A stretch of DNA of 62,614 nucleotides, filler included, from Sluysia triapertura (Eukaryota): the NCBI GenBank assembly GCA_046118255.1. It is 5 parts of 5 records of this genome, joined end to end, with 100 filler letters (N's around TTAATTAATTAA, not from the genome) between each part and the next. Parts side by side here need not be neighbours in the genome. Positions count along the whole stretch, not along the records: positions 13,536 to 25,198 come from JBJNIA010182347.1; 4 more parts are not named here. The stretch is one strand, 5' to 3'. Each line of letters begins with the position of its first letter. The first letter of the stretch is position 1. Positions 1 to 46,935 of the stretch are shown here, piece after piece. Made by a program: the position numbers and the translations under genes. The notes under the pieces are model-generated. The model searched no databases, was not told the origin of the DNA, and saw only the letters and a list, made by a program, of their open reading frames with translations.

Positions 1-2016
1 TATATATATATAGAACGAAATGCATTTTAGCGAACTCCACATATACGCGACACAATCACAAGCACACGCCATCAAAAATTAAAATTTTATCAGCAAACAA
101 ATCACTAAACAAGTTATCCGACTCATACAAAACACAGACACAATCATAATGTATAGTTATCATGAGATACAATTGTCATCATAATTCTTATAATAATTTT
201 ATATAATAATTATTATAATAATTTAGTTGAATTTACTAAATTCAAATCTAAACTAATCGAGGATTATTTTTTGGAAATATTTGCGCCGTATTCCAAAATA
301 ACACCGCATAAATTTCTGGAAATACTATTTATATACGAAGTTTCCATATGATTTATTTCACTACACTGGAATTAAGATCATGTATGAGATTAATTATATC
401 AATGGTTTATTTGAGTTACATTTATTTATTTACATTTGTACAGTAATGCTATAATTTGTGTAATTATTTCGTCATTAACATTGGTGATTAATAAGGAGCT
501 ATCATTTATAATACTAGATCATACAGCCAAAGTGTCGTTTATACCACATTTCCTACTATTACAGTTACTATTACGGCTATTACTGCTACTACCACTGAAA
601 CAAGCACTGAAAATACAAAAATTAATTAAAATTAAAAATAATTAATATCCTAATTAAAGAGTTAAAAACATCAATAGTTCTAAATTATGCAAAAAGTATC
701 TATAGAATAATTTGTTTCAACGATGAATTCAATGATATTATTCAAAGACATTAATTAATGGGGTTGCTATCGAATGTTCTAATTTCTGAATTAATATACA
801 ATGGTGTTTTTTTTGTTTTTAATCCTTATATTATTCAATAATATAAAGTTTACACATTTTGTTTTCACGTTTTTAAAATTAAGTTTTATTTTCAAAGCCA
901 TTAAGCCTGTTTTGTTTCTTAATTTATTAACTTTTAAAAGTTTAAATAGTAAAAGCAACTTGAATATAATTTGTTCATAAAATTACTTAAAGTTTTAAAT
1001 AGACATAAGTCCCTCAAATAAAGGTTTATGAGGTCTTAATTTTGACATAAATAATGGTATATATAAATGATCAACAAAATTAATAATCATAATAATACTA
1101 ATAACAGTGTTAATAATAATAATAATAATTAATAGTAGAAACTCTTTCTTTTTTATATTTCTTTATAAATTAAAATATTAAAATGTTACGTGTCACAATC
1201 ATTACGCATTGTTACAACATCATTCAAATTAAGTATTTATAATTTAAAAACCGTAAGTTAAATTTTATTAACATATTTAATGATTTATAATTAATATTAA
1301 TAATATACTTAAACATAAAATTATAAATTTAACATAATATAAAATCATAAATTTACAGAAATTACAGTTGTACTATTGTTTTTAGATGGTCTAACAATAA
1401 TATAATTAGACGGTTATTATTTATTTGTATTTCATTATCGAATACAACAAATCAAAACAGCTCTAGGTTCTTCTAATCATTTGGCAAATTAATATCTAAT
1501 TTCAGGTAATTGTTCGTGATCGGTATCAAAATCAGATGTAATCACAAATGTAAAAAAAGGATAATCTAGTTCCAAATCAGCTATTCATATTTCTTAGTTT
1601 ATTTTTTATTAAGATAATTCAAATTTCTAAGAATTGATTATTCATATTTTCAAAATTCACAGTCAATGTTTCTCGATAATCTGTATTTCAACTTACACTG
1701 ATTGATTCGGCATTACTAAGTGCAATGTATATTTCCATTGAATGTATCAGTAGTGTGCAATGTTACGAGAAAAAATTTCAGTAATCTTGAATCATTATAA
1801 TTTTCGTTTGACAAATAAGTTAAATTGAGTTTATTTTTTTGTAAATCTACATGTACCAAACTAAAGCTGATGGTTCAACTCTACCTAGTTTTACGTAAAG
1901 TATTGTACTTATAAAGTGTCAAAGTTATTAGGTTTTATTATCTTAAATTAGTTTTATTTTGTAAATATTATTTCCAAAAAAATTTTATTGTTACATATAT
2001 TTTATTTTATTAAATA

Positions 2017-3806
2017 TGTTGGGATTGTCCAACGGTGGACCGGAAGACGAGTGAAAACAGGCAAAATCACAAAATAAAGAAACTGGTACAGGGTAATGGT
2101 TGAAACATTATGAATATTGTTGGAATAAGTATAATAAAGATGAAATTATCTATAGGGATGTTGAAAGCTGAAGAGTACCTTAGAGAAATACCTTGAAAAT
2201 ACAATGGAGTTCCAAAGACCTATATGAGCTTTTGAGACCCTGTGGAAGTTTGAAATAGATTCAAGTATTAAAGGTATTAAAGTAACTTCGAACTTGTGAA
2301 TCTTTAAATCATGTAAGACCTTATTAACCTTTAAGTATCCTTGAAAACTTGATAAGCATTTTGGATCTTCAAGTAACCTTATAGAGTATTTAAAATCTTT
2401 AAAATATTTGAGAAATAAAAGCATTGTTCAAAATAGTAAAGGTAAGTTTAATATGGTAATAATTAACATGAAGAAATAGAAAAATACCTTATAATCTACT
2501 AAATAACTTTAGAACTTCAATAAGACCTTTAAAAATAAAATAAGATTAAGTCCAAAAATAGATTAAAATCGTAATTAACTTAATTAAGAAACAGTACGTC
2601 TTTATGAATAATTTTTGAATGCGTAATGCTATGTTAAATTTCAAACTGTGTATGTATTTGTTTTGAAAAGAACTTTCGATGAAGGTATGGTTTGTCTGAG
2701 TTCGTGCAAGGAAAGGCTTAATATTAAGCAATGTCAAATTTTTATTAATTTTTAATTATGAAATGTTGAATTTTTATACTCATAATGATGCAAATATAAT
2801 GAATTAAATATGAGGTGATTGTTATGAATGATATGAATCTAGAAGTGATTTCGAAATGTTTGCAGAATTGTTTGTTTGAGAATAAGAAATCATTTTTCAT
2901 TAGAAAATTTGATATGAAAAATTGAAAATTAATTAAATTCTAAAAAGTGAAATTAAATTCATTATTTTTATATATGTTAATAATATTGTTGATTGTTATT
3001 TTAATGTGAGAAGTAATTTATGTAAACAAATGATGGTTGATAATAAATCAAATTTTTGTGTTTTGTACCTAATGAAGTTTGACAGAACAACCATGTAATT
3101 GTCAAGGTCTGATTCTCAAAAAACTTTTAATGATTTGTGTGAGAGAGTGTTTGATTGTGAAACTCGAGATTGATTGTATGATGAGATAGTATAAAAACGA
3201 AAAAATTTAAAAAATTACAACACAAATGTGTTCTTGGTAAGACTTTCGTATTTTTTGATTTTATTATTTCAGTATTATTATTTTATTAGATTTTATTGTT
3301 TTGGGGAATGTCCTTAATTTGTTTTATCATTTCATTTTTTTAACATTCTGGGAAACACTCTGCCAAATTTATTCTTTTTTAAAATATTTGATTTTTATTT
3401 TGTTTTGCATTATTTGGAAAGAATATAAATAGTATTTTTTGTCAAATCTTAATTTTTGTTGCGTCACATCTGGTTTCATTTTGTGTGGGTTATTGTGTAC
3501 TTAACATTGTTATAAAAGTTAATGTTGATTTTCTTTTAATTGTTATCGTTTCTAGTCAACTCATTTATATTGTATTTACTGTAGTAATTTGTATTTATTT
3601 TTTGTAATTATTACAACACTGAGTTTTGTTATTATTTTAAATTAAAGAATATAACTTCTGTTGGGGTTGAACAGTTACCGTTACTAATCTAATAGAATTT
3701 GAGATAATTTAAATTTATTTTCATAAGTATTGAAATATTGGGATTCCATTTAAGTAAATTAAAATATTACTCAATTATTCTAATCGGTTAATTCCAAGCC
3801 CCAACA
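2017..3806 (+). mobile_element. Family A copy 1: 1.79-kb solo-LTR-like non-coding element
   Basis: Starts TGTTGGG (2017), ends CCCAACA (3806), flanked by direct repeat AATA (2013-2016 and 3807-3810). Alignable to 22884-24839 and 48410-49812 on the opposite strand. Orientation is arbitrary. Confidence 0.8.
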
Positions 3807-4029
3807 AATACTCTAACTTTCATATGAACCTACATAAAAGAAATTATTGTAAATAATTTTATAATAATTTTATAACAATTTATAACAAACGATAAAACTT
3901 GCAATAATAAACTTTTTATGAACAAATAGTAATAAACTTTTATAGTTAATAATATTTTATATACTCTTTAATAATAAAATATTTATGCAATAAAATAAAT
4001 AATACGTAAAGTAGTATAATTAACAGCGA

Positions 4030-5861
4030 AAATAAGCATTCTTTCAATCATTATTTATACAATTGAAATTTTGGATCCATACTACGGTTTTTATCATTTA
4101 AGGTGATTATTTACAAGAAATCTTTGATTATTCTCTAGAAAAAGGAAAAATTGTGTTCATCTTCCATTAGTTACAACAAACTGTCATCATATCCGAATCG
4201 TGATTACCACAGTTTATTCTTTAGTGTTCGAGATTAATTCGTAAGCTTTTATTAATAAGTTACTCTTTATAATACCTAGAATCATACTTAAACTTTTAAA
4301 CATTAAAGCGAAGAATTATCCTGGCTTAAAATCTACTTTACATTCTTTAATATTCTATTTTAACAATTTAAGTTTGTTAAGAAAAAATAAAGATTCAAAA
4401 GCAAGATCGTGTAAATCTTCATAAAGAATTTGTTTTTTTATCAGCGTTTTATATTATCATTATCGTTCTTAATGTCATCATTTTTAATTTCATATATGTC
4501 GAGAAAGCAAAAAATTTAAAAGCAAGTTCTTGTATAAGTTTCAAAAAGAATTTTGTGTATTTAGTAATAATAGTAATATTAATAACATTCTTGTTATTAT
4601 TCTTATTACTATAATCATTTTATTTTTCATTATTATTCATTATTATCGTTTTATTAATTTTTAACCACATAAGCAATTAACTTGGTATCTGCCATCATCA
4701 GCAGTGACATTTTTAATTTGCATTTATAGTTTAACGTCACTGTTGATGATGGTTGTCATCACAATACAATTTGTTTGTGTGTCGATCTGCTTTTCTCATC
4801 ATTGTTTTGTGGTGTTTCTATTGGCCGTCCAACCAGAGCTAGCATTACTGTTTTTATCATTTCAATACCTCTGGTTGGACAAGCAATAAAAAATCGTCGT
4901 ACTAAAGATACAACTAAAAAAAGATTTAACAAATTCATAGAGCTTAGAAATTAAAAAATGGAAATTGTGGTCAATGTAATATAATTCTAAGGACAATGAT
5001 AGAGTTTTGCGGAAATTTAGTTATTTGGTTTCTCTTTATGCTTATCTAAAACGTCATTTTACATCTTCTCGCTTAATATTATTTAGAAATTTACCTTGCA
5101 TAAGCGAAAATAAAAGCTGTAATGAAATTAAGTGTGAGAAAAATATAATAGACATGCGAGTATTTACATCAAAATTCATTTAAAACTTCAGGTCCAAATG
5201 TTTTTATTCCATTTGTGAATAACTCGTATGCTTTAGTAACTGATATGTTTGATGATATTAATAATGAGTGTTACTGGGAAACTGTGCAAGCATTCGGTTC
5301 AATATTTGTTGTACGCCACTTAAAAAATATGGCAAGAAAGTCATTGGAAATTTACCTGATATATAAATTTGATTCAGTACAGTTAAAATTTCCGAATTAG
5401 ATAAGTTTATCTTTACTAGAGATCAATTATTTCAAGATACATCACAGTATAGAATTAGTTATTCATAGCTATTATTAAAAATTAAAGAATTTGAACGTAA
5501 AAAATGATCATATAACTTTTATTCAATTTTAATTAATATTATGACAATATTTGATGAACCTTTAGTGTATTAAGATCGAAAGACATACTAAATCTTTGTG
5601 ATTACAAAGATGTTGATGAATCAATTGATGAATTAATGAAGTTGAAAAAGATTGACGTTGTATTAATCTATCATAACGTGTATTCGCATGACACTAATTA
5701 CATTATACATGATAAAGTTTCAAATGAATTTATATCTGAAAAGATAAAGCAAGTAAATGAAGACAGAATGTTCCGGAAAATGATTTACGAACCTATTTCT
5801 GATTATCAAACCAATGTTACATGCTATACTGAGTACAAACAAGATACTCATGCTATCAAAG
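4030..5861 (+). mobile_element. Family B copy 1, degraded and interrupted at 5862 by copy 2
   Basis: ATT-rich tract 4560-4660, hairpins 4691-4753 and 4827-4880, then broken ORFs. Shares AGATCGTGTAAA (about 4404) with copy 2 (about 6671). Left boundary approximate. Confidence 0.55.
4691..4880 (+). ncRNA. Two-hairpin structured module, copy 1
   Basis: HP1 gccatcatcagcagtgac/gtcactgttgatgatggt (18 bp, 2 G-U). HP2 gtccaaccagag/ctctggttggac (12 bp perfect). Function as RNA is inferred. Confidence 0.55.
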
Positions 5862-6824
5862 TGTAGTGGTCAACACTCACAACTTTAAATTCATCAAAAT
5901 ATTACATTTAACACTCATAATTCAAACTTCACTAAAACATAATATCTAAAGCAATCACATGTCATACTATCAAATTACACCAACTCAATCATTATAAACA
6001 ACACTCTACATTGATAATATCTCATCATCTCATATGTACCAACAATTCGACTAACACCCTCAGCCATCTACGTCACAACATACTCAGATAATTAATCCCG
6101 AATAATCTACAACATTCACTCAAAAGCTATTCCATCAAACAAACCACAACCATAATACATAATACAGGAATCATAAATATACTAACACCACTTAACAACG
6201 TTAACAAGTACCTTAGACATAGAAGACATTTCCATCAAAATCTCTAACCAATTACACCAAACTAAACTTACTTCATTTACACATGTTCATCACCAATACT
6301 CATCTTAACGACACTACAAATACGCTAGGATTTATTTTGTAATCGTCTTTTAAAATTAAGCTAACTTCAACCTTTCAATAAGCATCCCAAACTATCATAT
6401 TCAAGGCATAAATCTTGTTTTTAATTACAAACCATTAATAAACTTCAGTAAATTATCCTAAACTTTTTCGTTTCAAACACAGCTCAAATCAACCTTTTCA
6501 TCTACATTAGTAAACAATACAAATTCTTAAAAATTCATCATTTTATTACGAAACAGTAACGCCAATCGAAGTTTAGCATATTACTTTACCGTCGCTACTA
6601 AAGTAACAACAACCGATTTTACTCTTCTTTCTACTTTATATATGTGAGAAATTAAAGAATTTAAAAGAACAGATCGTGTAAAGTCTTTAAAGATGAAGTG
6701 TATGCGTTTTATTTTAATAACAATAATAATAATCGCAATGTTATCATTGTTATTATTATTATTACTCTTATTAACTCATTAAATATAAAACATTTCACAT
6801 AATTGATGATCAATCCTGTTACTG

Positions 6825-6991
6825 CCATCACCAGTGTTGACAGTCTGTCACATTTCTCATTAGACTGTCAGCGCTGATGATGGTCAGTCATCAGTTATTC
6901 TTCGTGTTGATTATTAGTTAGAATTCTAATATTTTCATCCAATCGAGACCTAATTTTACCTTTATCAATTTTAAAGGCCTCGATTGGATGA
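6825..6991 (+). ncRNA. Two-hairpin structured module, copy 2
   Basis: HP1 6825-6883 (22 bp, 1 mismatch, 2 G-U). HP2 6935-6991 tcatccaatcgag/ctcgattggatga. Confidence 0.55.
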
Positions 6992-7269
6992 CCAATAACA
7001 ATACATGAAAAAATTAAGAAACTAAAAATAGCGTATAATACAATTTAATTATATCATATTAGTGAAATACAGAGCAGAAGTTTTAAAACGTGAAAAAATA
7101 AAACAGAATTGAATTTTATAAATTGAATTTTATTAGTAAATCAGTAGCACATTTTCAATAAAAATTATCTCTAAAATATTGCATTGTTGTGTGGAATTAA
7201 ATTTTATTTGCGAATTCTGTTGTACATTTTCGTAAAGTATTATATCTAAAATTTTGAATTTTAAAATTA

Positions 7270-8980
7270 ATGATCGGAGCTAATTTTTCTCAGACTTTAT
7301 CAATATTTAATAAAGTCAGATTACAGAATTTATTTTCATATCATTTTAACGGTAACATTGTTAACATCATCAATAATGGACATTCCAATTCAACTATTAA
7401 CTGTTTGAATATGATAATTGACGTTACCGAATCGACGTTACCAAATTCAACAACAGATGTCACTTTAGTAATTGTTGAAGAAAGTCAAATTATATTGCTT
7501 ACATCTCCATTTATATCAAAAATTGAGTCACAACCTATTGACTTTAGTTTTCATAGTAATACATTCAAGCAGAACCATCTATGAAGACAAAATTTTCAAT
7601 GCAAGAACCGACAGCAGTCCACAATACATCTCTTCCTGTAAGTTCTATGTCAAAAAAATCAAATTGCTTACAAGATAAAGATGTCTACTTAGATCATTCA
7701 TTAGTAACAACGTCAATGGTAATAAATAAAGAACGCCTTAATTTTGATAAGTTTAATGTCGACGAAATATATCTTGACAATGTTAGTAATTTTCCACCAA
7801 GAAATTATTCAATTAACTCGGCATCTTGTCTATATTCTGAAGACAATAATGTTGATCATATGAGATTAAACATTAAATTAGACTTATTACAAACAAAACA
7901 ATTGTGGCAAAATAATGCTATAAGTGCACTTAGTAATGTTGATCCTACCTATGAAAGAATGTATAATTTCTATGAAACCGATGAAAAAGTAGTTAACTTA
8001 GATACAAAACCCAGCATGATGGCTACCGCTAAAATACATATTCAACTGTGGTTCCTTATAACCGGCTAACTAATCAGAACTCGAGTTTTCGCAATCCAAA
8101 AAAATTAAGATAGACCCTTATTTGGTTTTCGAATTAACAGTATTTATCGATAACTATTCAGATATCCTTAATAATATCATTATGTTAGATAACAAAAGAA
8201 TGATCTACCACACCATCAAAGTCAAGTCGATTGTAGACCTAAGCTTATGTATGCAGTATCGAGACGTCGTCAATTTGCAACAATGTAAGATTTTATTGCT
8301 TAAAATTTTAATTGGTGAGTTTTGGGTTCTTTTTGACGGAATTACTATTCGTAACGTGATGAACTATGTGTTAATTTCAATATTAGTTTATGCTAGTCTT
8401 AACAGGTCCACGAGGAGCAACAAGCTGGTCTAACTATTCAGGGATCACGAAAAGAAAAGAAAACTAGAGATAAACTTTTAAATTTAAATAAAATTTTAAT
8501 GTTTTTAAACGAATACAAACGTGTTGATGCTATTATGTCAATTAATTGTGTTTTAAAATTTTTTTCATTAGGTCAAAGGAATAATAAATTTACTCTATGT
8601 TGTCTAAAATTAATCAAAGTAACTATCAATAACAACTTTAACGATTTAAAATTCAAATTTATTAGAATTGAATCTGATTATGCAAGGATTCAATACTTAA
8701 TTAAAAAATTGAAATTAAGATCTTGCCAAACTCTATTAGTGTAGAAAGCCCACCTACGGCTATTAGTAAGGATCTAAACAATCTTTATTCTCAGTGTGAT
8801 CTTCAATATAATTTTCAAAATGAGAATTCGTATACTAGACTGAACCAATATGAACATAAGCAGAAGAACCTTACGTCATTTATAAAGTCTATCAATAAGA
8901 TATTATCAGCTAACCTCGGGAGAATGATTAACTTTAAACGCTCTAAACACTTAAAACAACCAAAAAAGTCAATCGAATGA
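7270..8980 (+). pseudogene. Fragmented ORF region of family B copy 2, product unknown
   Basis: Run of same-strand abutting ORFs (7270-7584, 7581-8069, 8122-8433, 8499-8744, 8723-8980) with Ser/Asn/Thr-rich start and no recognisable domain. Confidence 0.4.
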
Positions 8981-13435: not shown

Positions 13436-13535
13436 NNNNNNNNNNNNNNNNNNNNNNNNNNNNNNNNNNNNNNNNNNNNTTAATTAATTAANNNNNNNNN
13501 NNNNNNNNNNNNNNNNNNNNNNNNNNNNNNNNNNN
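13436..13535. other. Artificial contig spacer N44-TTAATTAATTAA-N44
   Basis: Identical 100-nt construct occurs four times; the 12-mer gives stops in all six frames. Confidence 0.95.
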
Positions 13536-14464
13536 AACCAGCAACTGTTTAGTGAAAACCTCCATTTTAATTTTTGCTCAATATTTATAAAATTTTGTAT
13601 TAATTAATTGTTTTAGTCAGCTTTGAGTCTTTTTTTTAGTAAAGACTCACCAAACTATTGGATCACTATTATTCCATCGATTTATTAAGTTTTATTGGTT
13701 TAAGATGTTCACGATTAAAATTCAGCTTAAATTCTTTTAATAATTTTTATTAGTGGAAAGTTTTAAATTAAAATCTATTATAAAACGATTAAAGATCTTA
13801 CTTTGTTTAATTACTTATAATATCTAAGTTTTATCGTCGATATTTATTCATCGATGTTTATAAAATTATAAACATAGAAATACAAATTATATATTAAAAT
13901 AAATTTTTTAACATAAAATTACAAATGACATTTATTATATAATATTGATTTACAAATATTTCCAATTGTTCTTATTTTGCTGTCATTTAAGACATCATAA
14001 TAATATAAATTTAGATTTTAAAGTGATAAAGTTAAAAAGGCATTTTAGAAAAGTAACGATTGGATTAATGATTATAATAACAAATAATTAAATGTAAGAT
14101 ACGAACCTTTTTCATTGGCTAATGACTACTTTATATTACACGAGTGCATGTATACTCTTTATTGAATTAAAATTTTGATGAATACAAAGTACTCTTTCTT
14201 CTGCTCAAACAAGTCTAGGTTATAAAGTCTACTAAAATCATTTTTGTGATTTATTAATGTTATTGTCATTATGTTAAAATTATTGTTATATTATTTAAGA
14301 TTATTATTGTTTACAATTTATTATTACGAAAATGTTTCAAATTATTATTATTATTATTATTCTTTTTATTTTGTTTTTTTTAATATTTAATATTTTTGGT
14401 ATTAGCCCAACATTTTCGACATTATTTTTATTAATTCATTTTTGCTTTTTAATGTAATAATGTA

Positions 14465-14765
14465 CAATGGCGGCCAAAGACCATTTTTGTGATAAAATTC
14501 AACATTTCCCAAGGATACTATGAAACTACTAATCAAAAGTTGGATGATTCACAATTTATGACACAAGGTGGTCTTGTCATACAAAACTTGAAAGGACGAC
14601 TTGTCACTAAAATACACTTGACTACAGTCATCCTAGCACGTGCCAACCTTTCACTGATCATCCCTGGTGTCAATTTAGACTTTCATCTAGGTAGTCTCGT
14701 TTGCAAACCATTGTGTCTACAAGTCTGTAAGTCTCTAACTGCTTCTGCAAAGTCATACTCGTAGC
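14465..14765 (-). mobile_element. Tc1-like transposon remnant
   Basis: Minus-strand translation with stops and frameshifts: GLQTRLPR*KSKLTPGMISERLARA and DCSQVYFSDKSSFQV (compare the Tc1 FSDES motif). TA|CAATGGCGGCCAAAG Tc1-like terminus at 14463-14479. Second TIR not found. Confidence 0.7.
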
Positions 14766-16310
14766 TTTACGATTCATAGTAGAAATTTTCACCAATTATC
14801 TATCATTTTATCAACGACCAAAAAAACTGTAATTATAAAATATTTCCAAAGTATTTCAACTTTCAACAAAGTATACTAAACGTATCCAGAATTTATTTCC
14901 AAAAATTTAAATTTTTTCGATTTACTACTTAATAATTAAATAATAAAAATATTTCTCATTAATAATATTGTCGATTTATTTTCGATTTGGTAATTAATAA
15001 GTCGTTTTCCCCGTTATTTTCAAAGATCGAAATCTATATAAACATAATTATATCATAAATAAGAGTTTCGTAAAACAAAAAAAAATTAATTTTTTAAAGT
15101 AGCACACACTCACAAAATTATAATGAATAATTACAATAAAATGTTGCGTATTTATTATGACAAACACATTTCTTTTCAATGCACACACAATATATTTATG
15201 AAAATATTACATAAATAATATATAGTGTAATTTGGATAATTGCACTTAGTATATATTTATAAAAAGAATCATTTTTCATATAGCTAAATAAATTAAGGTA
15301 TAATGTATATATAATTAATTTTATATGTACTATTTTCATCATTTGTGTTTCAAAAGTAATATATTTATTTTATTATATTTTTATATTTCACTTTCAACCT
15401 TGAAATATGATTTTGTTTTAAGAAACAATACCACCATTTTAAATTGAAATTAATTATTTGTTTCTGCGAAAAAGAGTCATTTAATAATAACTAAAGAAAT
15501 ATTCAGAATTATTAACCGTAACGGTAATTAAATAATCAACTTTAGTATTTTATTTAAGTTTCTTTAAGATAGTGTTCAAAGATGACTTCTTAGACAATGG
15601 AGTAATAGCGTTTATTGTGAAAATTAAAAATGAGATAATTAGATAAACTTATTGTTATATAAATTATTATTAATACATATTTATACTCATACATATATGT
15701 GGGTGCAGAGAGAAAGAGAAAGATAATGAGACAAAAATACAATAAAATATCATTATAATTCAAGCGACCAACATGATATAAGAAGCTTATTGGAGAAAAT
15801 ATTATTGTTAATAATTAATTTTTTAATATGCAAATGTAATCAATGTGATTTGTAACAATTAATCACATTAAATTTTTGTTAATAAAATGGCAAATCATTT
15901 TGTTGTTTTAAATTTAAATTATTTGGTAATAATTTTTAAAGTTTCATTTTGTCATTCAATTAATGTTTCACCAATATTTTCATTGTTTAAAAGTAGATTT
16001 ATTAACATTTTATGATCAAGTGTTTTTAGTCACATTTCCATTGGTTTACAAATATTCGAAATGTGCCATATATTTCATTTAAGTAGTGTTGGGGTAAAAG
16101 GTTTAATGTGCCATTTAGTAAAATTGACTATAATAAAATAAAATTGTTAGATAGCTTAGTGGGTAGAGTATCATCATCACCATAATCATCGCGAGTACAA
16201 ATATTCAATAATTCAAATACTTTAATTTTATTTACAGCTGTGATTTGTCGCTCAGTTTCTCACAACTAATTGTCAGTGTACAGGAATAACATTTGGTACT
16301 ACTTTTTTAA

Positions 16311-16592
16311 CCCCTTCGCTCTTTATTCCAGAGCATAAAATCCCGTATATATATGGACCGAAATAATCAAACGAAAAAACAAGTGTAATCTTCGTAATAT
16401 TTATAAAACGACGTCGGACATATCTTTGTAAACTACTTTTGTTATTATTTAATATTACATTGTATGTTTTAATACCTTGTTTGTCTAGTTTTATTTGTTT
16501 TTCTATTAGAAAAAATGTCTTCGCGTTTTCACTAATAAAAAAATAGCCAGTTTTCGACCATACACTTGAAAAATAAATAAACAGGGAAGGTA
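16311..16592. mobile_element. piggyBac-like MITE
   Basis: TTAA on both sides (16307-16310, 16593-16596). Imperfect TIRs ccccttcgctctttatt versus reverse complement taccttccctgtttatt (13/17). Confidence 0.55.
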
Positions 16593-17726
16593 TTAACACG
16601 TTGAATGCCATAGGATCACCGGTGACCGGCGAAGCCAAGATTATTAGAAATACAAACTGAGAAATTCATTTTGGAAACCTAAAACCCCGATACTACACCA
16701 ATGCATTAATAAGTAGCACTTTTTCCATATTTAAAAATTTGCTCCGTTATGCGATTTGTTAACAATTTTTTAAATTAATCGGAAATGGTATGCTTGATTT
16801 GTTTCACATGTTTCCATTATTTTGCAACGTCTGCAATTTTTGCAATATTTTTTTTGATTTACTTTTCTTCAAAATTTTCCCTCTTTTGTGGTTAATTTAT
16901 CCCTGTTACATATAGATTGATTATTGCACGAATTAATTTAGTTAATGAATTTACTGGTTAAATTTACATACTAAAAATACGATCCTACAGAGCATTGTCT
17001 TTATCACAATCAGTAAATCTTTCCAAGTCAATTTAGATAAGAAAAATAAATTAATTAAAACTAATTGTTTATTAAAAAATAACTACAATTTTATGATATA
17101 GTATACTTCTTAGTAAATATAATTAATAATTATAATAAAAGTGATGCAGTTATAAATTAAGTTATAAATGATTCAAATGTTCATTTTCTTGTTTGGTTGG
17201 TTGCTGATCTGCGCAAGTGTAAGGCTTTATATCCGTTACTAAGCAATTGATAAAAGAGGAATTAGTAGTTGTTGAGGTAGCAGTTGCTGTAGTAACTGAA
17301 ATATGATTGTTAACAACTTCGTTTTCTGGTAGTATATAAAATGACGAAGTTTGTTGATAGTGATGGTGATAATGGTGATGATGATTCTTATGATTATTGT
17401 TACGATGATAATGTGTATGATTGTTATGATTCATAAGTCCTATTCGTGATGCTATGTTGTAAAATAATGGATAATGATTATTGTTTAATGTTGAATTCTG
17501 ATTGGTTGAAATGAGTAATAAAGGACTAGGAGATTGAATAAAGGAGTTATTGATGGATTTGGATCGAGTGAAGATTTTCTAATACAGGCTGACTTGTATT
17601 GTGATATTGATGTTGCTGATGCTGTCTGTGATAATTTGAGTATTCATGCACACATGGATTTTCTTCAACCATTTCAACAGTTTCATCTAAATCATTTTCT
17701 TCTAATATATTAAACCTATCTCCAGG

Positions 17727-18658
17727 TTATTTTATATTTACATCAACATCAAGACTTGTAATAAGAGCTATCGACCGATACGATTGATGAAGTTCGCAAA
17801 GTTTCTTACCCAACTGAGCTCTGTGCGTTATACGATGACTCGGAATCTGAAGCATAAGTGACAGAACATTTGAATCTAAATCATTACCTAATATTAAAAT
17901 AGCACCATGAAGTCCACTATCCTTCAAATTAACTGTATATTCTTTTAATCCGATTTCATTTAACCATTTTATAACTCGATCGTGTGTCCAAACAATTACA
18001 TCTACGTAATCTGCTTGATAGGCTTCACGTCGTTTTTTCTAATTCAGTTTTGTTGTAATTGAGTTTTCGTAAAAAACAAATTCCATGTTGTAAACTGCTT
18101 CTGTGAAAGAAATCGTGAAATTTTAAATGAACTCGTAAATCTTTCTTAGTTAAATGTTCTAACACTCGAGCATCAACAAGGTTTTCCATAAAGCTTGATC
18201 TATATTGACCTAATCCGAGACTTGGTAACCACTGCTGCCGAACCCATTCATGATCCAATTCACCATGGATAAATGGACTGTGCGAAATTATTTGACCAGT
18301 ACTAGTTCGAGCACTATGTTGTTGCTGTCCCATTTGAGTAACTTGAACCATTTCGTGAATTGCCAACCGCAATTTTAAGCGATGTAAAGGATTACTTATT
18401 CAAATTTCATGTTGAATTTCTTGATCACTTAATGATGCCATTATATGGCCTGATTTCACATTAGCACGACAAGCAGCCACATACCAAGCTGGCTGCTAAC
18501 CAAGCAACAATTGTAGGATCATTCCAAAACGTAAAAGATGTTTTTGCATGCATCGCTTCTACTAATAATTCTTTTTTCTTTCTTCGTTTTTCTTCTGTCT
18601 GCTTTCCAAGAATGTAATAATTTAAGGAAACGTTATCTGTATTATTGTTAGTCATCAT
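17727..18658 (-). pseudogene. PPFIA: Liprin-alpha (SYD-2/PPFIA) triple-SAM region, intronless and disabled
   Basis: [86 protein letters not shown] and LKDSGLHGA are liprin-alpha SAM1-3 motifs. Lesions: deletion/frameshift near 18495, TGA in place of Gly at 18400-18402, extra base in the 6-nt homopolymer at 18033-18038. Low-complexity coding-like sequence may extend it to about 17160-19060. Confidence 0.9.
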
Positions 18659-19137
18659 ACGTGATAATCACGTGATAATTGTTGCAACAAAGCAAGCATA
18701 CTGGTTACTGGTAATTTAGATTCTTTATTAGGCACAACCAATAATATGAGACATGGTTTTTCTACCTTTGTCAAAGTTTTAATAAGGCCAAATAAGTTTA
18801 TCGTTCGTTAATTCACCATTTCGTGATTGCAGAATTATTTTGCATTTAAAACGTTACACAGATTTTCTTCGTTTGATTAGTTCAGATTTTGTGGAGAGTT
18901 CAATTTAGGGTCATTGTTCAATAAACCCTGAAATTGATTGTGAAGCGAGTATGATGATGAGGACGAATGCGACAATGATGATAAAGATGCTAAAGAATTC
19001 GTAAATTGAGGTTGTGTTTGTTGTTGCGCTGGTAGAGGTGGAAGAGAATTAATGATAAAAAAATGAAGAAAAACAAAAAGAATAGAAGGATAGATTAGTA
19101 ATAAGGATAAAAGAAATAATAATAATAATAACAATTA

Positions 19138-21273
19138 TGTGGTTATTATGTTGAAATATTTATGTTGAAATTTATTATGAAATTTTATTATGAAAATTAT
19201 TATAAAAGTTATAAGAGTTATTATTTGGTATTTATATTATATAACAATAATGACTATAATTATTACATATATTTTAATGCGATCTGAATTGTAATAATAA
19301 TAGCGATAGTTCATGATGATTAGATGTGATGGTCATGTTTGTTTTTGAATGAGTTTAGTAGTTTGTTTAATAGTCTGTGTACATATGGAGTGCCTGTATG
19401 TGATGAAATGTGATGGATTTTATGTGATGAATTCCCTACAATTTGTTTGGATAACTTTATATGTTTCGAACTTAACTATTCCCATGCTTAGCGCTGATTG
19501 CTTTGTTCCACAGTTTATTCTAAAAGAATCAACATATGCGATGAATTTCATATATCGTTCTAATATATTGTTAAAGTTGATAGAAATGTCCTAACAGTTG
19601 TCAATAGCTGAATCCACTCGATCCCCAGGAAACGATAGAATGAAATTTTTGTGAAACAATTTATCAATTATGAAGGAATTTGTAAGTGATTCTAAATTTG
19701 TTGAAGTTATATAGCCAAACGTTTTGGTTAGAAACATTTGATATAAACACATTTGTTCAGACGTGTGAGATTTCTTAGACTTCACATAACAAGTTGATGT
19801 ACATCTATTCATTAAGCCAAAACTAATTTTACAACTGAAACATTCCCTTCAATAATTGATGTTGTAATTCCTTCTTCTTTGGCAACTTTGTAGAGATAAT
19901 GACCATCTTCTTTTTCCTTACAAACATGTTCCTTCTAACTGAAATGTAAACATTACTTCTTCGTCTTTTCCATCATTATTGAAGTAAATTAAATCTGAGG
20001 AACAAGTTGCGAGAAAACCATTTACTTTCATACAAGTATTTACTGATTTTAACTCGAAATAATCGTTATAGTCCTCTAGTGAACTTATTCCACATGTTAG
20101 CTTTTGTCAAATTTTTTATTATCATAAAAATTTTTAATAATAATCTTTGTTGATTCACTTTCTGTATCTGAGTGGCTGCCTAATCAAAACGCAAAAAGTA
20201 GATGACGTGAATGGCTTTAATTGGACAGTCATCCAAACACTGAGAAACAAAGATAGTAAATACATGTCATGAACTGTCATCAGTCGACAGTTAGTAAAAT
20301 AACTGATTTAAATGATTTTAGATGGCAGGTTACTAATATGAAAATTTTTATGAATGCAGCAAATAGAGCCACTATCAGTAGTGACAATAAATTGTGATTG
20401 TAAATCAATAATAATACAAATAAATAACAAATTAGTGTATGAATAAAATAAAATAAAATTGCTAATTAATTTAAAAAACATAAATTCTTTATTTCTTTAT
20501 GCTGAGAATACAATGTTTTTATTTATTTCTTTAGTTTCTTAACATATTAAAATTCTTGAGTTCTTCTATTTTTATTTCTTACGTATTTAAATTATCTTAA
20601 TATAGCTGATTTTCTTAGTGTGGATGAGAATTGAAGAAATGTGACCTAGTCGAATTTCTTAGGTTGCTTATAGGGCATATGTTGTGGTTCTTAGGTTATG
20701 TGTTGTGAATGAACTGTTTATATATAAGCTTTTATTAATCAGGTGTTACATCTGAAAGTGCCAGTGATTTCTGTGTGGTTATAATATGGATTTGAGAAGT
20801 TTTGAATTATTTTGAAGATGTAATTGTAATTCTGGTGTTGTGAGATGATGAATGAAATGTGTTAACTGGGTTTTAATATGTATTAATGATCTGAAATTGA
20901 ATGTAATTTTAATATTGTAAGGTATAAACTGGAAGTGTTTTATATGAATTTTTAAATAAAATTTGACGCTTTTGGAAGAAAGTAAGGTTTGGATGTGGAG
21001 ATTGGAACTTGAAAGTGCATTGAATTCGTTTTAAATTTATATCTGATGGTTTTTAAGATGTAAATTGTAGTTCTAATGTTGTGAGATTGAGTTAAAATGT
21101 CCTAAATGAAATTGAAATGTGTTTAATGAATTTAAATGCTAATCGATGTAATTATGGTTATGAGTGAAATGTTTTTAATGAACCTTTAAAATGTTTATTG
21201 CAGATTCCGAAGGTGAATGTAGTTTATGTGATGGCTTAATAAAATTTGTAACAGTAATAGGTTGGTCACCACA
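19138..21273 (-). mobile_element. Family B copy 3, apparently complete (2.14 kb)
   Basis: Termini TGTGGT (19138) and ACCACA (21273); flanks ATTA/CTTA (3/4). On the minus strand: G-poor leader, ATT tract, hairpins 20274-20328 and 20174-20230, then a decayed ORF (e.g. 19591-19812). Confidence 0.65.
20174..20328 (-). ncRNA. Two-hairpin structured module, copy 3 (more degenerate)
   Basis: Minus strand: HP1 ctgccatc...gatgacag; HP2 ctgtccaattaaagc/gttttgattaggcag, which pairs through several G-U only on this strand. Confidence 0.45.
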
Positions 21274-22883
21274 CTTACATTAAAATTAGAATGTCCAAAA
21301 ATATTAATCATATTAAAATTAAACGTTCAGATATTTATTTATTTTGATTTAATTTAACTGCTGTTTACAAAATCGTATATATTCAAATGATCAGACAGAC
21401 ATTTAAAATGATTAGTTGACAAAATGAATAAAATTAGAAAAGAACGAATGAAAGCAATTAAAAGAAATGACAAGAATAAAACATTAAAACAATATTATTG
21501 TTATTATTATATGCCAAAGGTTTTAAAATGAAATAAATTTTGTGTGAGTAAAGAAGTGAGATTGGACAATGTCACTATTTTTGTAAAAGGTAAGTTAGTT
21601 TGGGTTTTAGTAATAACGAATAATTATTGATGTAATTGGAATAAATTACTTCGAAGTTTTCCTTATTTATTTTTATTTTGTGTTAATGGAGGGTATAAAC
21701 TTTAATTTATGGGATGGAACACTAGATTCACAAATATCGAATTAATATCATTCAATCCGCAACAAATAATTTCTCTCATCATCATCATTCTCGTCTCTTT
21801 TGCAAGATTTTCTACTTTTGTGTAACTAGTTGGGTCTTTTGGATCGAACCATATATCTATCGACTTTGTCTTTGTCTTCCTTTTTGATTATCTATCACAA
21901 CAATCCGATTTTCTACTGAAATTTATCTTAGGTTAACTAAATAATGCTGAACCCACATTTAACATTAATATTTAATTATTTTGTTTATCCGAGTTCACGA
22001 CTTATTAATCAACCACCAAGTGATTTCACCAAAAAATCCACCTTTGTGTTCGTAAATTACTTGTCTTTTAGAATTTAGACCTTTTGCATTTTTTCAATGA
22101 ATAAATGGATTTTTATATTTTTATAATATTTGTTTCTTTTTACATTCATTAACATTTAATTTACCAACAGTTATTTGTATCACTATAAAAATTAAATAAT
22201 CACTTACAAATGAAGGAAATGATTTTAAAATTGTGGGTCTGTAAGAGTTTTGTACTTTTAATAATGCTATAAAGATTGCTAAACCAAATTCAAATTTTAT
22301 CTTTTTTATTTTGCTGCAACAATGTCTAAATTAATTGTTTCATTTGTTAGATTTTATTAGGTTTATTAACCACAACTTTTTAAAATTAATTCATAATTAA
22401 TTAATATCTTATTTCGTACATTGTTTATAATAAGTGATACCTTTGAGATTAAAAATATCGGTTTATATATAACACTCACTCTAACCATTGAAAAACAATC
22501 TATATCAATCCGTTATAAATGCGCATGAGTAAATCAGTAAACCTGATACCCATCTCCTCAGGGAAATGAATGTGGTTTAGCGTGAATATATATGTAAAGC
22601 TTCTTTTATTTCCCTGCCTTCTACCATTTCTCCACCCCTACCTATGAAAAAAATCATGAAATCCCTCCAAATGAAGCATTTGGCAAGTGACTTAAAGCAA
22701 CGTAGGATTCTTTTAGCAAGGAACTCGGTACTTTCGAGGAGCTAAACATTGGAAAGAACCCGAATGTATGACCCAAGTTTTTAATTCTGATTCAGAATGA
22801 AGTTGTTCCTGCAGCTGTAAAAAATAATTGAAAGAAAATAGCTTTTTAAAAAAACTATCAAAAATTTATTAGATGTGTATTTC

Positions 22884-24839
22884 TATTGAGTCTTTAAAAA
22901 TTAATAGCTATGATAACTCAATATTCTCTTGATCAGCTTAAAAGAATCTTAACAATATAAGTTGACACTATATCAAGTATAATGTTGCAGTAATTCTCTT
23001 ACTTAATATTAATAAATATTCACCCAAAATTAAGCTCTTAAAAATCAAATCAAAAATAAGGCAATAATTTATTATTAAACAAAAATCAAATTAGAATTTA
23101 TTGTTATTAGTATGACTTTCCATCAAGCAAAACCAAAAATAACTAAAATGACAAAATCAACAATAGCGTTTATAATAATATTAAAAATACTACAATCTAA
23201 CTGAAAAATCAGGAGTGATGACGCAATAAACACAAAAATATGATTATCCAGAAAGTTTAAAATAGTAATAATAATTAAATATTTTAAAAATAAACTGGTC
23301 AGAGTGTCTCCCAAGAAGTTAATTTAAAATCGCTAAAAATCAAATAATTAATTCAAAATATTTCAAAAATAAACTAAATTACTTAAAAAATGACTGAAAG
23401 TAAAATCAAACAACTTACAATAAAAGTAGCAAATATTAATTTATATTAAAATTATCTTTCCTTTAATAAAATCAAAAATAAAGTTAAAATAAAATAAATT
23501 AATTTTAAAATAATAAAATAACAAAATAAGAAATAAACAAGAAAATTATCCTATGCATGGATCTTCACTGGATAATTACATAATTGTGTCATTGTTGTTA
23601 TTGAGATAAAGATTTAGAAATCCTTACTTTATATTCCCTCATCATCCAATCATTTCCCAGTCTCACAACCAAACATTCTCTCACAGAAATAATCCAAACT
23701 TCTTTGAGAATCAGACCGATAATAGCAACTTTGACAATTACATGGCACGGTGTGTCAAACTTAATTAGGTACAAAATATAGAAATCTGATTTATTATCAT
23801 CCATCATTTCTTTTTACTCTACTCAATCTATTTTTACTTAAATTACTATTAAATCTATTAAATCTATTAAAATAACTATCAACAATACTATTAAAATACA
23901 TAAAAACACGAATTTAATTTCACTTTCTATTATTTAATTAATTTTCCAATTTTCTAATGAAAAATGTTTTAAGGTTCTTATTCTCAAACAAACCATTTTA
24001 CAAACATTTCGAACTCACTTTCGTTGCAATCATTTCATATTCCATTCATCACATTTGCATCATTCTAAGTATTAAAAATTCAACATTCTATTATTAAAAA
24101 TTAATTAAAATTTGACTTTGCTCAATATTAAGGCTTTCCTTACATGAACTAGGTCAAACCATAACTTCATCGAAAGGTCTTTTCAAAACAAATACAAACA
24201 CAGTTTTAAATTAACGTAGCATTCCGCATTCAAAAGTTATTCGTACTTTTTTTTATTAAGTTAATTAAGACTTAATTAATTAATTTATATTTAGACTTAA
24301 TCTTATTCTATGTTTTGAGGTTTTAATAAGTTATTTAATAAGGCATTCAGGAGGCTCTAAGTGTTTTCACCTTCACCTCTCTGATTCCTTTTTCTACTTC
24401 TTTATGTTAATTATTACTATACTAGATTTATTCTTAATACTAATAACAGTGATTTTATTTCTCAACTATTTTAAAGATTTTAAACACTTTATAAGATTAC
24501 TAAAGGATCTCAAGTGATCATCGATGTTCCAAGATACTTAAATGATACTTAGGTCTTAAATGATTTAATGGTAATAAAGTTCAAAGGTATCTTAATGCTT
24601 CTAAAGCTTTTTCAAGTCAATCTCAAGCTTCCATAAGGTCTTAAACCCTAATATAGATCTTTGTAACATTAAGATATTCTTTAGCTGTTAAGATCATTAT
24701 AAATTTTTTCTGTTTCATGATTCTTATTCAAACAATGTTTACAATGTTCAATCCATCACTTCGTATCAGTTCTTCCTTGATTTTATAGTTCTATATGTTT
24801 CTCACTCATTTTCTGTTCTACAGTTTGGCAATCCCAACA
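22884..24839 (-). mobile_element. Family A copy 2: 1.96-kb solo-LTR-like element
   Basis: Ends ATCCCAACA (reverse complement TGTTGGGAT, as copy 1). Left end TATTGAG is a mutated TGTTGGG. Exact TTTC flanks at 22880-22883 and 24840-24843. Alignable to 2017-3806. Confidence 0.8.
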
Positions 24840-25099
24840 TTTCTCCAGGTAAAATTAAAGAAGTTTTACATTATTTCTACTATGGCCAGATCAATCATAA
24901 ACACAATCCAAGACATTTCTCATAGATAAAATCTTAAACGATCTAACACAAACAATATACATAAAACAGAAACAATTTTCACTACACTCTGTATGTAGAT
25001 AGATATAGTTACTATTTTGATTTATTTAGAACAAGGTGAAGAAGAAGCTTAATCAAAATAATTATTTTTAAATAATATGAAAGTTTAAAAATAGCTAAT

Positions 25100-25198: not shown

Positions 25199-25298
25199 NN
25201 NNNNNNNNNNNNNNNNNNNNNNNNNNNNNNNNNNNNNNNNNNTTAATTAATTAANNNNNNNNNNNNNNNNNNNNNNNNNNNNNNNNNNNNNNNNNNNN
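25199..25298. other. Artificial contig spacer
   Basis: N44-TTAATTAATTAA-N44. Confidence 0.95.
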
Positions 25299-26410: not shown

Positions 26411-26551
26411 TCTGTGCACATCTTATTTGAAGTTACATCTTATTTGTGTCTGTGCACATCTTATTTGAAGTTACATCTTATTTGTGTCTGTGTACATCTT
26501 ATTTGAAGTTACATCTTATTTGTGTCTGTGTACATCTTATTTGAAGTTACA
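26411..26551. repeat. 38-bp minisatellite, about 3.7 copies
   Basis: Unit TCTGTG(C/T)ACATCTTATTTGAAGTTACATCTTATTTGTG at 26411, 26449, 26487 and 26525. Confidence 0.95.
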
Positions 26552-35869: not shown

Positions 35870-36397
35870 CGACCATGGACCACTGTAAAAGATTAAACCA
35901 TAATTCATCTTACTTCACCATAAAAGTAGAAACATCAGTTGTAAATCGCTGTATCAAATTCATAAAGCAATTTGATAGTTTAACACCTGAGTTAACTTTA
36001 TTAACTGACTTGTTTATCGTTTTAGCATAATTTTCATCATAAAACTCGGTTACATTATCACTCGTCTTAAATATATAAATTTAGTGATGGTAGTAGGAGT
36101 GAAGTATTCATTCGGTAAACTTGTTCATACAGTTTTAAAACTTGATTTAATATCATCAAATTCATCGAGATTGAGACTAATTAGAGATGTTATCAAGTAT
36201 TTGTACAATTGAGTAATTAAAATCATTAACTTAGAATGATTGCTAAAAGCATTGATCCAAAAATTTGGAATACATTTTACTAAATTATTACGTTGCTGAA
36301 TTAATGATTGTCTTTTTAAATCATGATCATTATCTACTTCTGACATTTCTCTAGCTTGATCATTAAATCCATTTGAATTGCTCTTGCTGACACTCAA
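35870..36397 (-). pseudogene. SET: SET/TAF-I (nucleosome assembly protein family) intronless pseudogene
   Basis: RQSLIQQRNNLVKCIPNFWINAFSNH and DEFDDIKSSFK match the SET IPNFW and EFEDIKSGY motifs. After a stop and frameshifts, GEV/DELWFNLLQW resembles GEVIKDDIWPNPLQY. Confidence 0.8.
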
Positions 36398-36659
36398 TTT
36401 TTCCCACTTTCTAGACCAAAACCATATTTTTGTTAATTTTTGAGAAAACTATATTGAACAACGTAATTGAAAATTATCATCGAAAATAAATTGTGATTAA
36501 ATTTTGTTGCAAAATATTGTGCACACTAATAATTTTAGTATGGGTTTTATATGGCCAACTAAAACGATTTGATACGTTTCCGTATTTTATTTTTTAACAG
36601 CTTTATTGAAATTATTATTATTGTAAGATTTTTTTCTTTTGAATTTAATGTGTTCTTAG

Positions 36660-37012: not shown

Positions 37013-37112
37013 NNNNNNNNNNNNNNNNNNNNNNNNNNNNNNNNNNNNNNNNNNNNTTAATTAATTAANNNNNNNNNNNNNNNNNNNNNNNNNNNNNNNN
37101 NNNNNNNNNNNN
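37013..37112. other. Artificial contig spacer
   Basis: N44-TTAATTAATTAA-N44. Confidence 0.95.
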
Positions 37113-37448: not shown

Positions 37449-37602
37449 ACCACCATTCATACTGACATAATTAATCTCTGTGTACAAATGAATGTCAGCA
37501 TGAATGGTGGTTTACCTCTCATCAATTTAGTCTGCTCATTATTACTAGTCGTCCAACCAGAATTGTTGTTATCATCACTTTATGTTTCTCTGGTTGGACG
37601 AC
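37449..37602 (+). ncRNA. Two-hairpin structured module, copy 4
   Basis: HP1 37449-37511 (20 bp, 1 mismatch). HP2 gtcgtccaaccaga/tctggttggacgac (14 bp perfect). Confidence 0.55.
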
Positions 37603-38029
37603 AAATCAAAGTGAGGTAAAATTAATTATATCACAACCTAGTTAAACTGTAAATACACAAAGAGATATTACTAGCAATTGAATGATATTTATTTTTTACT
37701 GTCATCAAATTATTACCCAATTACAATCATTTTAAAGTTCAGTTATATAGTTTGGTTTGTAATAGCTACCAAAAAAATAAACAGAAAAAGACAAAAACAG
37801 TACAGTTATAAATTAAAAAATCATAGTACGAAGTATATTAATCAAAGATTGTGAATTAAATTTTGAGGCCAAAAATTTCATTATCGAAGAACTTTTATAA
37901 ACATAGTAATTAACCAACAATAATTAGTGAATTTTCACGTTCATAAATTATAATCATTGAAGTTGAAATAGTGACAACTCTGTCTGAATTATATTCATTA
38001 GTTCCAAAATTACCAACAAAGTAGATCTT

Positions 38030-39073
38030 TTGATGATTTCTCAACCTATACCAAATACAAATAATTTGAGTGATGCTGTTCAAAATAATTCTGTATCGGC
38101 TTATAGTAATTCAGATTTATATAGTGGAAACGATTTTAGTACATCTAAAACTGATGATAAAGTACAGTATGTTAATCAACCGATCATTTCCAATGAAAAA
38201 GAGAATTGCGTTTATGTTTCCAACTCGTTTATTGTAGATGAATCTTTGAATTTAAATGCACTAAATTCATTATCATATGTACAATTTAGATCAACCTATC
38301 TATCCGATGACAAAATATTAAGTCAGCATAAAGTTAATGTTAAAGTAAAGGATGTGACCAACTTAAGCAGTGTTACAAGTAGTCGTGACGATTCTATACC
38401 TACTAGTTCTAATCAGTCGACTGATCCAAAAAAACGAAAATTAATACAACAGCAATTATTACTGTTTCTTCATGCACATGAAGGTTCAATAATTAGTACA
38501 AGGTTATCGCATGAAGGTTCAATAATTAGTACAAGGTTATCGCATGAAGGTTTAATAATTAGTACAAGGTTATCGCATGAAGGTTCAATAATTAGTACAA
38601 GGTTATCAAATGAAGGTAAAATTGTTCTTTTTAATTCAATGTTGCTGGAAAAATATAAAGTTAACCTTTTTAATTCAATAATATTAAACAAATACAAAAT
38701 TGACCTTTTTAATTCAGTGTTGTTACAAAAAAGTAAAGTTGATCCTTTTAATTCAATGCCGTTAAACAAATACGAAATTGATCCTTTTAATTCAATTTTG
38801 TTAGAAAAAAATGAAGTTGATTCTTTTAAGTCAATATTGTTAAACAAATACGAAATTGATCCTTTTAATTCAGTGTTGTTACGAAAAAGTAAAGTTGATC
38901 CTTTTAATTCAATGTCATTAAACAAATACGAATTTGATATTTTTAATTTAGTCTTATTAGACAAATATAAATTTGATCCGTTTATTTCAACGCTATTAGA
39001 TAAATATGAACTTGACCTTTTTGATTCAATGTTGATAGATACGAACTTGGCCTTTTCAATCCGATGTTATTAG
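38030..39073 (+). CDS. Family B ORF (347 aa): Ser/Asn-rich region, CBP/p300 TAZ1-like 19-mer, 11-aa and 13-aa repeats
   Basis: Long intronless ORF in AT-rich DNA containing [19 protein letters not shown], then ([11 protein letters not shown])x4 and about 12 DPFNSxLLxKxxx repeats. Confidence 0.5.
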   Translation: [347 protein letters not shown]

Positions 39074-39080
39074 ACAAATT
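38477..39080. repeat. Compound minisatellite: 33-bp x4 then 39-bp x about 12
   Basis: CATGAAGGTTCAATAATTAGTACAAGGTTATCG at 38477, 38510, 38543 and 38576, then degenerate TTGATCCTTTTAATTCAAT... units. Confidence 0.9.
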
Positions 39081-46738: not shown

Positions 46739-46935
46739 TTTGATTGGGTGACCAATCGTTTGATTTTTGTAATGCAGAATAAATAAGATATTAGAATGTC
46801 ACTCGTCAACCAATCAAAAATGAGAGGCATAAAATTTAATTGAATTGTAAAAAAACCTGGTAACCGTCATCAATTTATGTTAAATCGATTATTTGTATTA
46901 AACTAAATTAGAAACTGTCAATTGATGACGGTTAC
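46739..46935 (-). ncRNA. Two-hairpin structured module, copy 7
   Basis: HP1 gtaaccgtcatcaatt/aattgatgacggttac (16 bp perfect, 46860-46935). HP2 tttgattgggtgac/gtcaaccaatcaaa (46739-46818). Decayed minus-strand ORFs follow (45768-46121). Confidence 0.5.

Follow-up and report, generated by a model that had tools for sequence, protein, structure and literature searches.

A dispersed repeat with TG...CA ends and a broken ORF in Sluysia triapertura, possibly a long Gypsy-type solo LTR

Results

The locus and its surroundings

The stretch of DNA analysed here (the window) comprises 62,614 nucleotides, filler included, of the Sluysia triapertura assembly GCA_046118255.1, joined from five parts of five records. 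It is AT-rich (GC 17-35% per kb). Besides the unit on which this study centres, it holds further copies and modules of the same kind, three copies of an abundant repeat (family A), a Ty3/Gypsy-like RT remnant and host genes (Table 1).

A liprin-alpha stretch (17160-19050, minus strand), which lies to the left of the focal unit, seems intronless and changes frame near 18500 and 18035. Its SAM region (17820-18658) is 58-63% identical to the best named matches, all vertebrate, and the upstream coiled-coil part was not found in the window. Every contig differs from the window's letter at the sites listed for this stretch. Its reading as captured cargo was rejected, the read depth (84-533) being not separable from background.

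Table 1. Positions, strands and main traits of the features in the window.
Feature	Position	Strand	Description
Focal unit	19138-21273	.	TGTGGT...ACCACA, 2136 bp; from sequence
Segment X	19138-19440	+	About 300 bp, TGTGG...CTACA, very abundant; own flanks ATTA/ATTT, 3 of 4 alike
Broken ORF	19423-20103	-	In-frame stops; frame seems to change near 19850-19930; end lies just within segment X
Focal module	20170-20330	-	Decayed: right arm of hairpin 1, CCAAT-type arms of hairpin 2; from alignment
T-rich zone	20400-20480	-	Place of the (ATT)n tract in other copies; AATAAA sites on + strand
Leader zone	20574-21273	+	TG-rich on +, G-poor on -; internal duplication of about 140 bp
Copy B1	5862-7005	+	TG start, leader, intact double hairpin 6825-6991; coding-like zone to about 9300
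Copy B2	50379-51559	-	TG start, leader, intact double hairpin 50609-50398
Module	4692-4880	+	Double hairpin, then decayed coding-like zone up to 5862
Module	37449-37602	+	Double hairpin, then 1.9-kb ORF zone (tandem repeats of 33 and 39 bp); gap truncates upstream side
Module	46742-46935	-	Hairpin 1 intact, then 1.8-kb broken ORF zone; candidate far end TGTGGT at 44428
Family A copy	2017-3806		Flanks AATA/AATA
Family A copy	22884-24839		Flanks TTTC/TTTC; far end placed by homology, then by flank
Family A copy, third	about 48505-49812		Cut by gap, nested in B2, gives B2's apparent far end
RT remnant, Ty3/Gypsy-like	47394-47603	+	E 1.8e-13 to PDB 4ol8; 9.8e-13 to Ty3-G Gag-Pol
Further ends	27-365; 24844-24986	-	TGTAGTGAAA; the first resembles segment X, a family A copy parts the second from its upstream section
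Further repeats	14369-14737; 15845-16951		Depth 3e3-5e4; TGTTGGGG start near 16087
Tandem repeat	26411-26551		38-bp unit, 3.7 copies, 99% identity
NAP-like frame	36125-36448	-	Host gene; Pfam E 0.00026, below cut-off
Decayed stretch	39950-41150		Between ORF zone 37988-39777 and start 42371; perhaps a hAT-type transposase remnant; two pieces scanned, no Pfam support
Unbroken frame	52683-54050	-	456 codons, 13 copies of a 30-bp repeat; (ATT)n upstream, no strong hairpin module; ORF 52683-54044 with 0 matches among 1344 candidates; zone downstream weakly like segment X (0/200 shuffles)
Coiled-coil gene	55674-62520	+	Long host gene, short introns; possibly rootletin-like
Gaps	13436-13535; 25199-25298; 37013-37112; 49813-49912		100 letters each, N runs flanking a 12-base linker mid-gap; may join unrelated contigs

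Ends, layout and ORF of the focal unit

The preliminary description of this DNA had drawn attention to TGTGGT/ACCACA ends with near-matching 4-bp flanks. Both are present (ATTA at 19134-19137 on the left and CTTA at 21274-21277 on the right, alike at 3/4 positions), but taken alone they are at chance level. The terminal inverted repeat measures 6 bp, with TGTGG at both ends, and the two ends align with each other no better than shuffled sequences do (44 versus 40+/-6). Thirteen TGTGGT...ACCACA pairs lie 1.5-4.5 kb apart in the window, three of them with 3-of-4 flanks; the probability that two random 4-mers are alike at three or more places is 0.09. For the focal start, 8 of the 74 candidate ends have flanks as good as those of the focal pair, and an alternative left end at 16887 has an equal motif score. 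Leader and tail compared in the same orientation, as a direct-repeat test, score 80 against 70+/-10 in shuffles, and a TRIM or LARD was rejected for want of direct terminal repeats. No PPT was found adjoining the focal left end, a PBS-like TGG is absent directly outside the TG at 4/4 named starts, as expected of solo or 3' LTRs, and no paired copy, PBS or PPT for the focal unit was found within the window.

Read on the minus strand from 21273, the unit opens with a G-poor leader and a T-rich zone; the two-motif module comes next, then the broken ORF, and the tail is AT-rich. G is outnumbered by C in the first 700 bases (46 versus 152), which bears out the G-poor leader of about 0.7 kb reported earlier; where an (ATT)n tract had been described, a T-rich zone does stand at the matching place, but the focal run is just 9 bases long. 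The ORF region is coding-like, none of 200 shuffles being as open in a fixed-offset test, but broken, with 3 stops in 227 codons of one frame (20103-19423), and it ends 20 bases inside segment X. The claim that no transposition enzyme is present held: none of the five focal ORF pieces reached the Pfam cut-off, and no integrase-like transposase was found among the 30 window ORFs scanned with Pfam. Protein searches gave the focal ORF 0 matches at E 0.01 among 62 candidates (lengths 124-398 only) and 0 matches at E 0.001 among 1.84 billion representatives, with no gag or pol relative. The one sub-cut-off Pfam match was to VIT (E 0.07); the ORF may also have a SWIM-finger look, with no Pfam support. 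A CX2CX3-4HX4C zinc knuckle was found in 0 of 19 ORF pieces, in which broken frames could hide one.

Double-hairpin modules and related copies

The module is present at five places besides the focal one, where 9 of the 10 stems fold strongly (z -3.7 to -6.7). The hairpins of the focal copy fold no better than shuffles (z -0.8 and +0.1), so that what persists there of the hairpin module described earlier is the motifs and their spacing. The spaced two-motif pattern occurs at the focal module, 4744 and 6875 (chance 0.00, the pattern being drawn from these copies). In hairpin 1, 7 of 17 pairs are changed on both sides across six rows, as in 3 of 500 shuffles; the structure was taken from B1, and the focal row is mostly gaps. 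Rfam gave 0 matches across the window, and searching metagenome and viral contigs for a 24-base hairpin motif likewise gave 0. We regard the focal module as the putative promoter of the focal ORF.

Copies B1 and B2 are 72% identical over 1109 aligned columns (alignment of 1.15 kb, E 1e-71), and their likeness starts at the TG. The focal copy is a distant relative of these two, since nhmmer found no match between it and any other copy and the score of its first 1144 bases exceeds those of all 40 block shuffles by a narrow margin (108 versus 52+/-15 against 5862; 131 versus 64+/-15 against 51559). A 13-base start motif is exact at 5862(+), 21273(-) and 51559(-); allowing one mismatch it has 4 matches, against a chance mean of 0.73 and with 0 of 100 shuffles reaching 4, although the motif was drawn from the copies and the count is partly circular. 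Two of the related starts named in the preliminary description are among these, but the third, 42371(-), has a short leader, no motif match and no module.

A fixed far end could not be upheld in the other copies. B2's is family A, which had been overlooked, and that of B1 has no secure placement, 5 of 42 candidates having 3 or 4 flank bases alike. Past its ORF start, B2 enters the gap at 49813-49912 and then the nested family A copy, and the ORF probably resumes at 48500-48135. Rejected candidates were 3659 as a start of the focal family and 49148 or 48828 as the end of B2, all inside family A, together with 8194 as the end of B1, which has a perfect 4-bp flank but is one of 42 sites and lies within the coding-like zone. 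No purine or pyrimidine tract was seen by eye where the block shared by B1 and B2 ends.

Coding-like zones behind the modules

Behind each of the six modules a coding-like zone follows on the module's own strand, with order and strand alike in 6/6. An earlier zone test had used zones picked after the ORFs were seen and was repeated at fixed offsets: behind hairpin 2, the same strand gave 0, 3, 0, 12, 7 and 0 of 200 shuffles, and the opposite strand 20-149 of 200, none clearly coding-like, against a background in which 69 of 394 strand-windows reach z -2.5 overall. Directly past hairpin 2, B1 and B2 are unrelated (154 of 200 shuffles score as well), and the 147 ORF pairs compared have no significant likeness, the score of the best pair being reached by 2/200 shuffles. 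Because the likeness of B1 and B2 stops at hairpin 2, the cargo varies, as had been proposed, and a shared end with a promoter-like module precedes exchangeable cargo. The ORF zone is 0.7 kb long in the focal unit versus 1.8-2.1 kb behind three other modules. In an atlas search, 7560-8066 (the B1 ORF) had two weak look-alikes in unnamed clusters (score 0.91, low recognition), and nothing was found for 39025-39774.

Read depth and segment X

Reads came from one sequencing run, which covers 0.55 of the words sampled and could be from the very sample that gave the window. Depth is the summed depth of contigs at 80% likeness; it is uneven, is not copy number and has a background of 50-115. Rows at the repeat 19104-19143 were excluded from the analysis.

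The unit at 19138-21273 is a real dispersed repeat, its depth being raised across the whole length. Values of 1049-8548 across 20724-21283 give way to 68, 50 and 100 in the three bins past 21283, and the right end thus coincides with a fall to background. The left boundary is less clean, with 1499 and 2647 at two sites just outside. Depth is 122-863 in the ORF zone and 1.0e5-4.2e5 over 19124-19443, where the next bin reads 606: a fall of several hundred-fold at 19444, at the site of a second TGTAG end motif (19440). Given that summed depth is not copy number and the background is 50-115, relatives of the ORF zone number from a few to perhaps fifteen, and the first 300 bp are far more abundant. 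Contigs differing from the focal copy number 7-94 at 40 listed sites across the unit and 10-16 at each of nine listed sites in the ORF zone; two listed pieces carry letters other than the focal copy's at 31/233 and 36/206 positions. Contigs that match exactly have a depth of 9-21, below the background, so that further haplotypes may be present.

The left 300 bp (segment X) had gone unremarked as a far more abundant unit. Segment X is either the unit's shared far end or a separate short element. It resembles 27-365 of the window (0/200 shuffles reach the score), and a short motif common to these two and to the tail behind ORF zone 46935 has three matches in the window, partly circular since the motif was drawn from them.

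Family A and the RT remnant

Family A (TGTTGGG...CCCAACA, 1.8-1.95 kb) reaches a read depth of 1.2e6. Its two complete copies are 79% identical with their ends in register, and both have perfect 4-bp duplications; a small hairpin near 3076-3105 is common to all three copies. The family looks like an ordinary, very abundant solo LTR, and from its perfect duplications we infer that an integrase leaving 4-bp duplications worked in this region.

The RT remnant, for which Pfam RVT_1 gives only E 0.15, lies about 460 bp past module 46742-46935, with about 530 bp between it and the end of the B2 ORF zone, and runs antisense to the two ORFs. Remains of an integrase or RNase H at 47600-48150 were rejected, with no Pfam or PDB match (PDB for one of three frames). 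Module 46935 is matched to B1 and B2 with scores that 7 and 9 of 100 shuffles reach. As the modules on either side of the remnant are not sister LTRs, its link to the unit is circumstantial.

Discussion

A long solo LTR with an antisense ORF

The observations of the preliminary description are partly confirmed and its interpretation is partly supported. We tentatively read the focal unit as a long Ty3/Gypsy-type solo LTR carrying an antisense accessory ORF, with a probability of roughly 0.42; the solo-LTR reading offered earlier is still the best one, but neither a paired copy nor a PBS or PPT accompanies it in the window. The element's own sense is probably the plus strand, opposite to the direction in which it had been read. 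On that strand, following the general layout of LTRs, segment X and then the antisense accessory ORF would form a U3-like part, followed by a two-way promoter made up of the hairpins with inverted CCAAT boxes; an AAT/polyadenylation zone would come next, and the end, rich in TG, would be U5-like. The complete element would have been reverse transcribed and inserted by its own integrase with a 4-bp duplication, and recombination between its two LTRs would have left the solo unit. Strand transfer between co-packaged RNAs is a mechanism of exchange in LTR replication; between RNAs of different families it could have swapped the U3-side cargo and segment X, so that parts of the unit would differ in abundance.

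Several observations argue for the LTR reading: termini of the TGTNR type whose inverted repeat is just 6 bp long, the perfect 4-bp duplications of family A in the same window, the differing contigs in the ORF zone, the lack of a PBS-like TGG outside the four named TG starts, the RT remnant antisense to two ORFs, the both-side changes of hairpin 1 and, by analogy, the antisense accessory ORFs of plant Gypsy elements. The first two, with the Ty3-like remnant, also uphold the link to a retroviral-type integrase that had been suggested. Against it count the imperfect 3-of-4 duplication beside the perfect ones of family A, the depth step at the second TGTAG motif, the short focal ORF zone, the non-sister modules around the RT remnant, the lack of a PPT at the left end and the equal-scoring end at 16887, as well as a single run, perhaps from the window's own sample, with summed depths that are no copy numbers.

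A wider reading, which we consider doubtful, is that integrase-inserted animal elements exist, as giant LTRs or a non-autonomous class, whose terminal unit is a self-contained, exchangeable expression cassette. Such a cassette would join a conserved TG end and a promoter of two covarying hairpins to an orphan ORF, interchangeable and reaching about 2 kb, and to a tail common to the copies. If so, promoter-plus-orphan-gene units would be scattered at about six per 62 kb. Solo LTRs are usually regarded as non-coding promoter debris; if these units are LTRs, each of them would bring along a promoter and a gene that close relatives exchange. Such units would feed orphan genes directly into an AT-rich animal genome, and they would offer a case in which the exchange of accessory genes among retrotransposons can be tested.

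Alternative explanations

The main rival, rather unlikely in our estimate, builds on the left 300 bp being hundreds of times deeper than the ORF zone, which means that the focal unit may be composite. Segment X would be a separate, abundant 300-bp solo LTR inserted in, and truncating, an older remnant (19441-21273). That remnant would be what is left, at the 3' side, of an LTR element carrying an accessory gene in antisense, so that TG and CA would come from two elements. The abrupt step at the second TGTAG motif fits this, as do the segment's own ends with their 3-of-4 flanks, the (TA)n run that precedes its look-alike at 27-365, and a focal ORF that has a third of the zone length of three others and stops 20 bases into the segment. 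However, no continuation of the remnant is recognisable to the left of segment X, the motif of the segment recurs, with some circularity, in the tail behind ORF zone 46935, which likewise ends in TGTGGT, and no piece or loose end falls at the 19440 junction among the 6 of 538 loose ends listed. A composite would be ordinary nested transposon debris, except for the swap of promoter and cargo between B1 and B2. This exchange of cargo behind a covarying module stands under the LTR and the composite readings alike, and it is what is both solid and unusual in the finding.

Movement as DNA is a clearly weaker candidate: a non-autonomous, Ginger-like class with unlike ends, an inward promoter and captured cargo, mobilised in trans by an integrase-type transposase. 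TG...CA ends, cargo exchange right behind hairpin 2 and the failure to find an enzyme, PBS or PPT of its own are in keeping with it, and a non-autonomous copy would lack a transposase anyway. Yet the inverted ends measure 6 bp, whereas those of Ginger1 span 40-270 bp and those of Ginger2 about 50-180 bp, as far as the available text gives them (PMC2836005), and membership of Ginger, once considered, is not retained. Nor do the flanks correspond to a CCGG/CCGT or RTATAY target, such a transposase was not among the 30 ORFs scanned, and the read depths of the two ends lie about a hundred-fold apart.

The orientation of the preliminary description could instead be the sense one, with a 5' LTR, hairpins for RNA packaging or dimerisation and the truncated start of a fast-evolving gag. 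This is improbable. Covarying stems just ahead of an ORF are what selection at the RNA level would give, and order and strand are alike in all six modules, but the ORF pieces are without a zinc knuckle (19/19) and without significant likeness among the 147 pairs, no gag or pol relative of the focal ORF appeared among the 1.84 billion representatives, the RT remnant is on the opposite strand, and no consistent CA-TGG precedes hairpin 1 by eye. Very improbable is a non-transposon origin, in which segmental duplication spread a family of host genes that share a conserved promoter and encode fast-evolving proteins rich in repeats, the TG...CA ends being due to chance: end motifs and flanks at chance level and the two weak look-alikes of the B1 ORF in unnamed clusters would suit it, but read depth drops at the TG...CA end itself, the likeness of B1 and B2 begins at the TG, and the ORFs are broken and mutually unrelated.

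Comparison with known systems

The long solo LTR that we favour shares with Ty3/Gypsy solo LTRs the TGTNR ends, the short inverted repeat, the kilobase length, dispersed copies and the lack of an enzyme; their 4-bp duplications are found in the neighbouring family A. TGTNR termini are given for both Gypsy LTRs and Ginger in the part of the source available (PMC2836005). With Ginger1 and Ginger2/Tdd, the unit has in common these termini, the 2.6-7 kb size class and, going by the neighbouring family A, 4-bp duplications; it is without the 40-270 bp inverted repeats, the integrase-like transposase and the target flanks that the same text describes.

As for length, Ogre LTRs span 1.9-6.5 kb, and planarian Burro/GYPSM1 belongs to the long-LTR lineages (PMC6431247, in the sections available). 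The extra ORFs of Burro and Ogre are placed there in the internal region (PMC6431247), whereas the focal unit has a decayed 0.7-kb ORF between its termini. Extra ORFs are also known in rotifer LTR elements (PMC5408684, available in part). The closest parallels in strand are the plant Gypsy elements Grande, RIRE2 and Retand, with antisense accessory ORFs, a promoter of their own and tandem repeats (PMC7264820; PMC11963269, both in excerpt), and HTLV, with an antisense promoter in its 3' LTR (PMC7264820). Like the plant elements, the unit would have an ORF of unknown function, antisense to pol, an upstream promoter and tandem repeats in the region. In the excerpts, however, their ORF lies between pol and the 3' LTR, whereas the focal ORF appears to lie inside the TG...CA unit, and that of Retand is conserved (TRP28 in 97% of clusters) whereas here the ORF differs between close relatives. 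The available portions of PMC11410931, PMC8532177 and bioRxiv 10.64898/2025.12.11.693146 give no LTR structure. Repeat libraries in paper supplements may already list these families. No invertebrate LTR with an exchangeable internal ORF was met in the literature searched, which was covered by title and start of abstract, with few subscription journals and outside Repbase and Dfam.

The sag gene of MMTV is an ORF held in a retroviral LTR. Compared with retroviral LTRs that carry an ORF (MMTV sag, HTLV), the cargo here is unrelated between copies and no link to env or gag was found; the likeness lies in an LTR that would serve as the transcription unit of an accessory gene.
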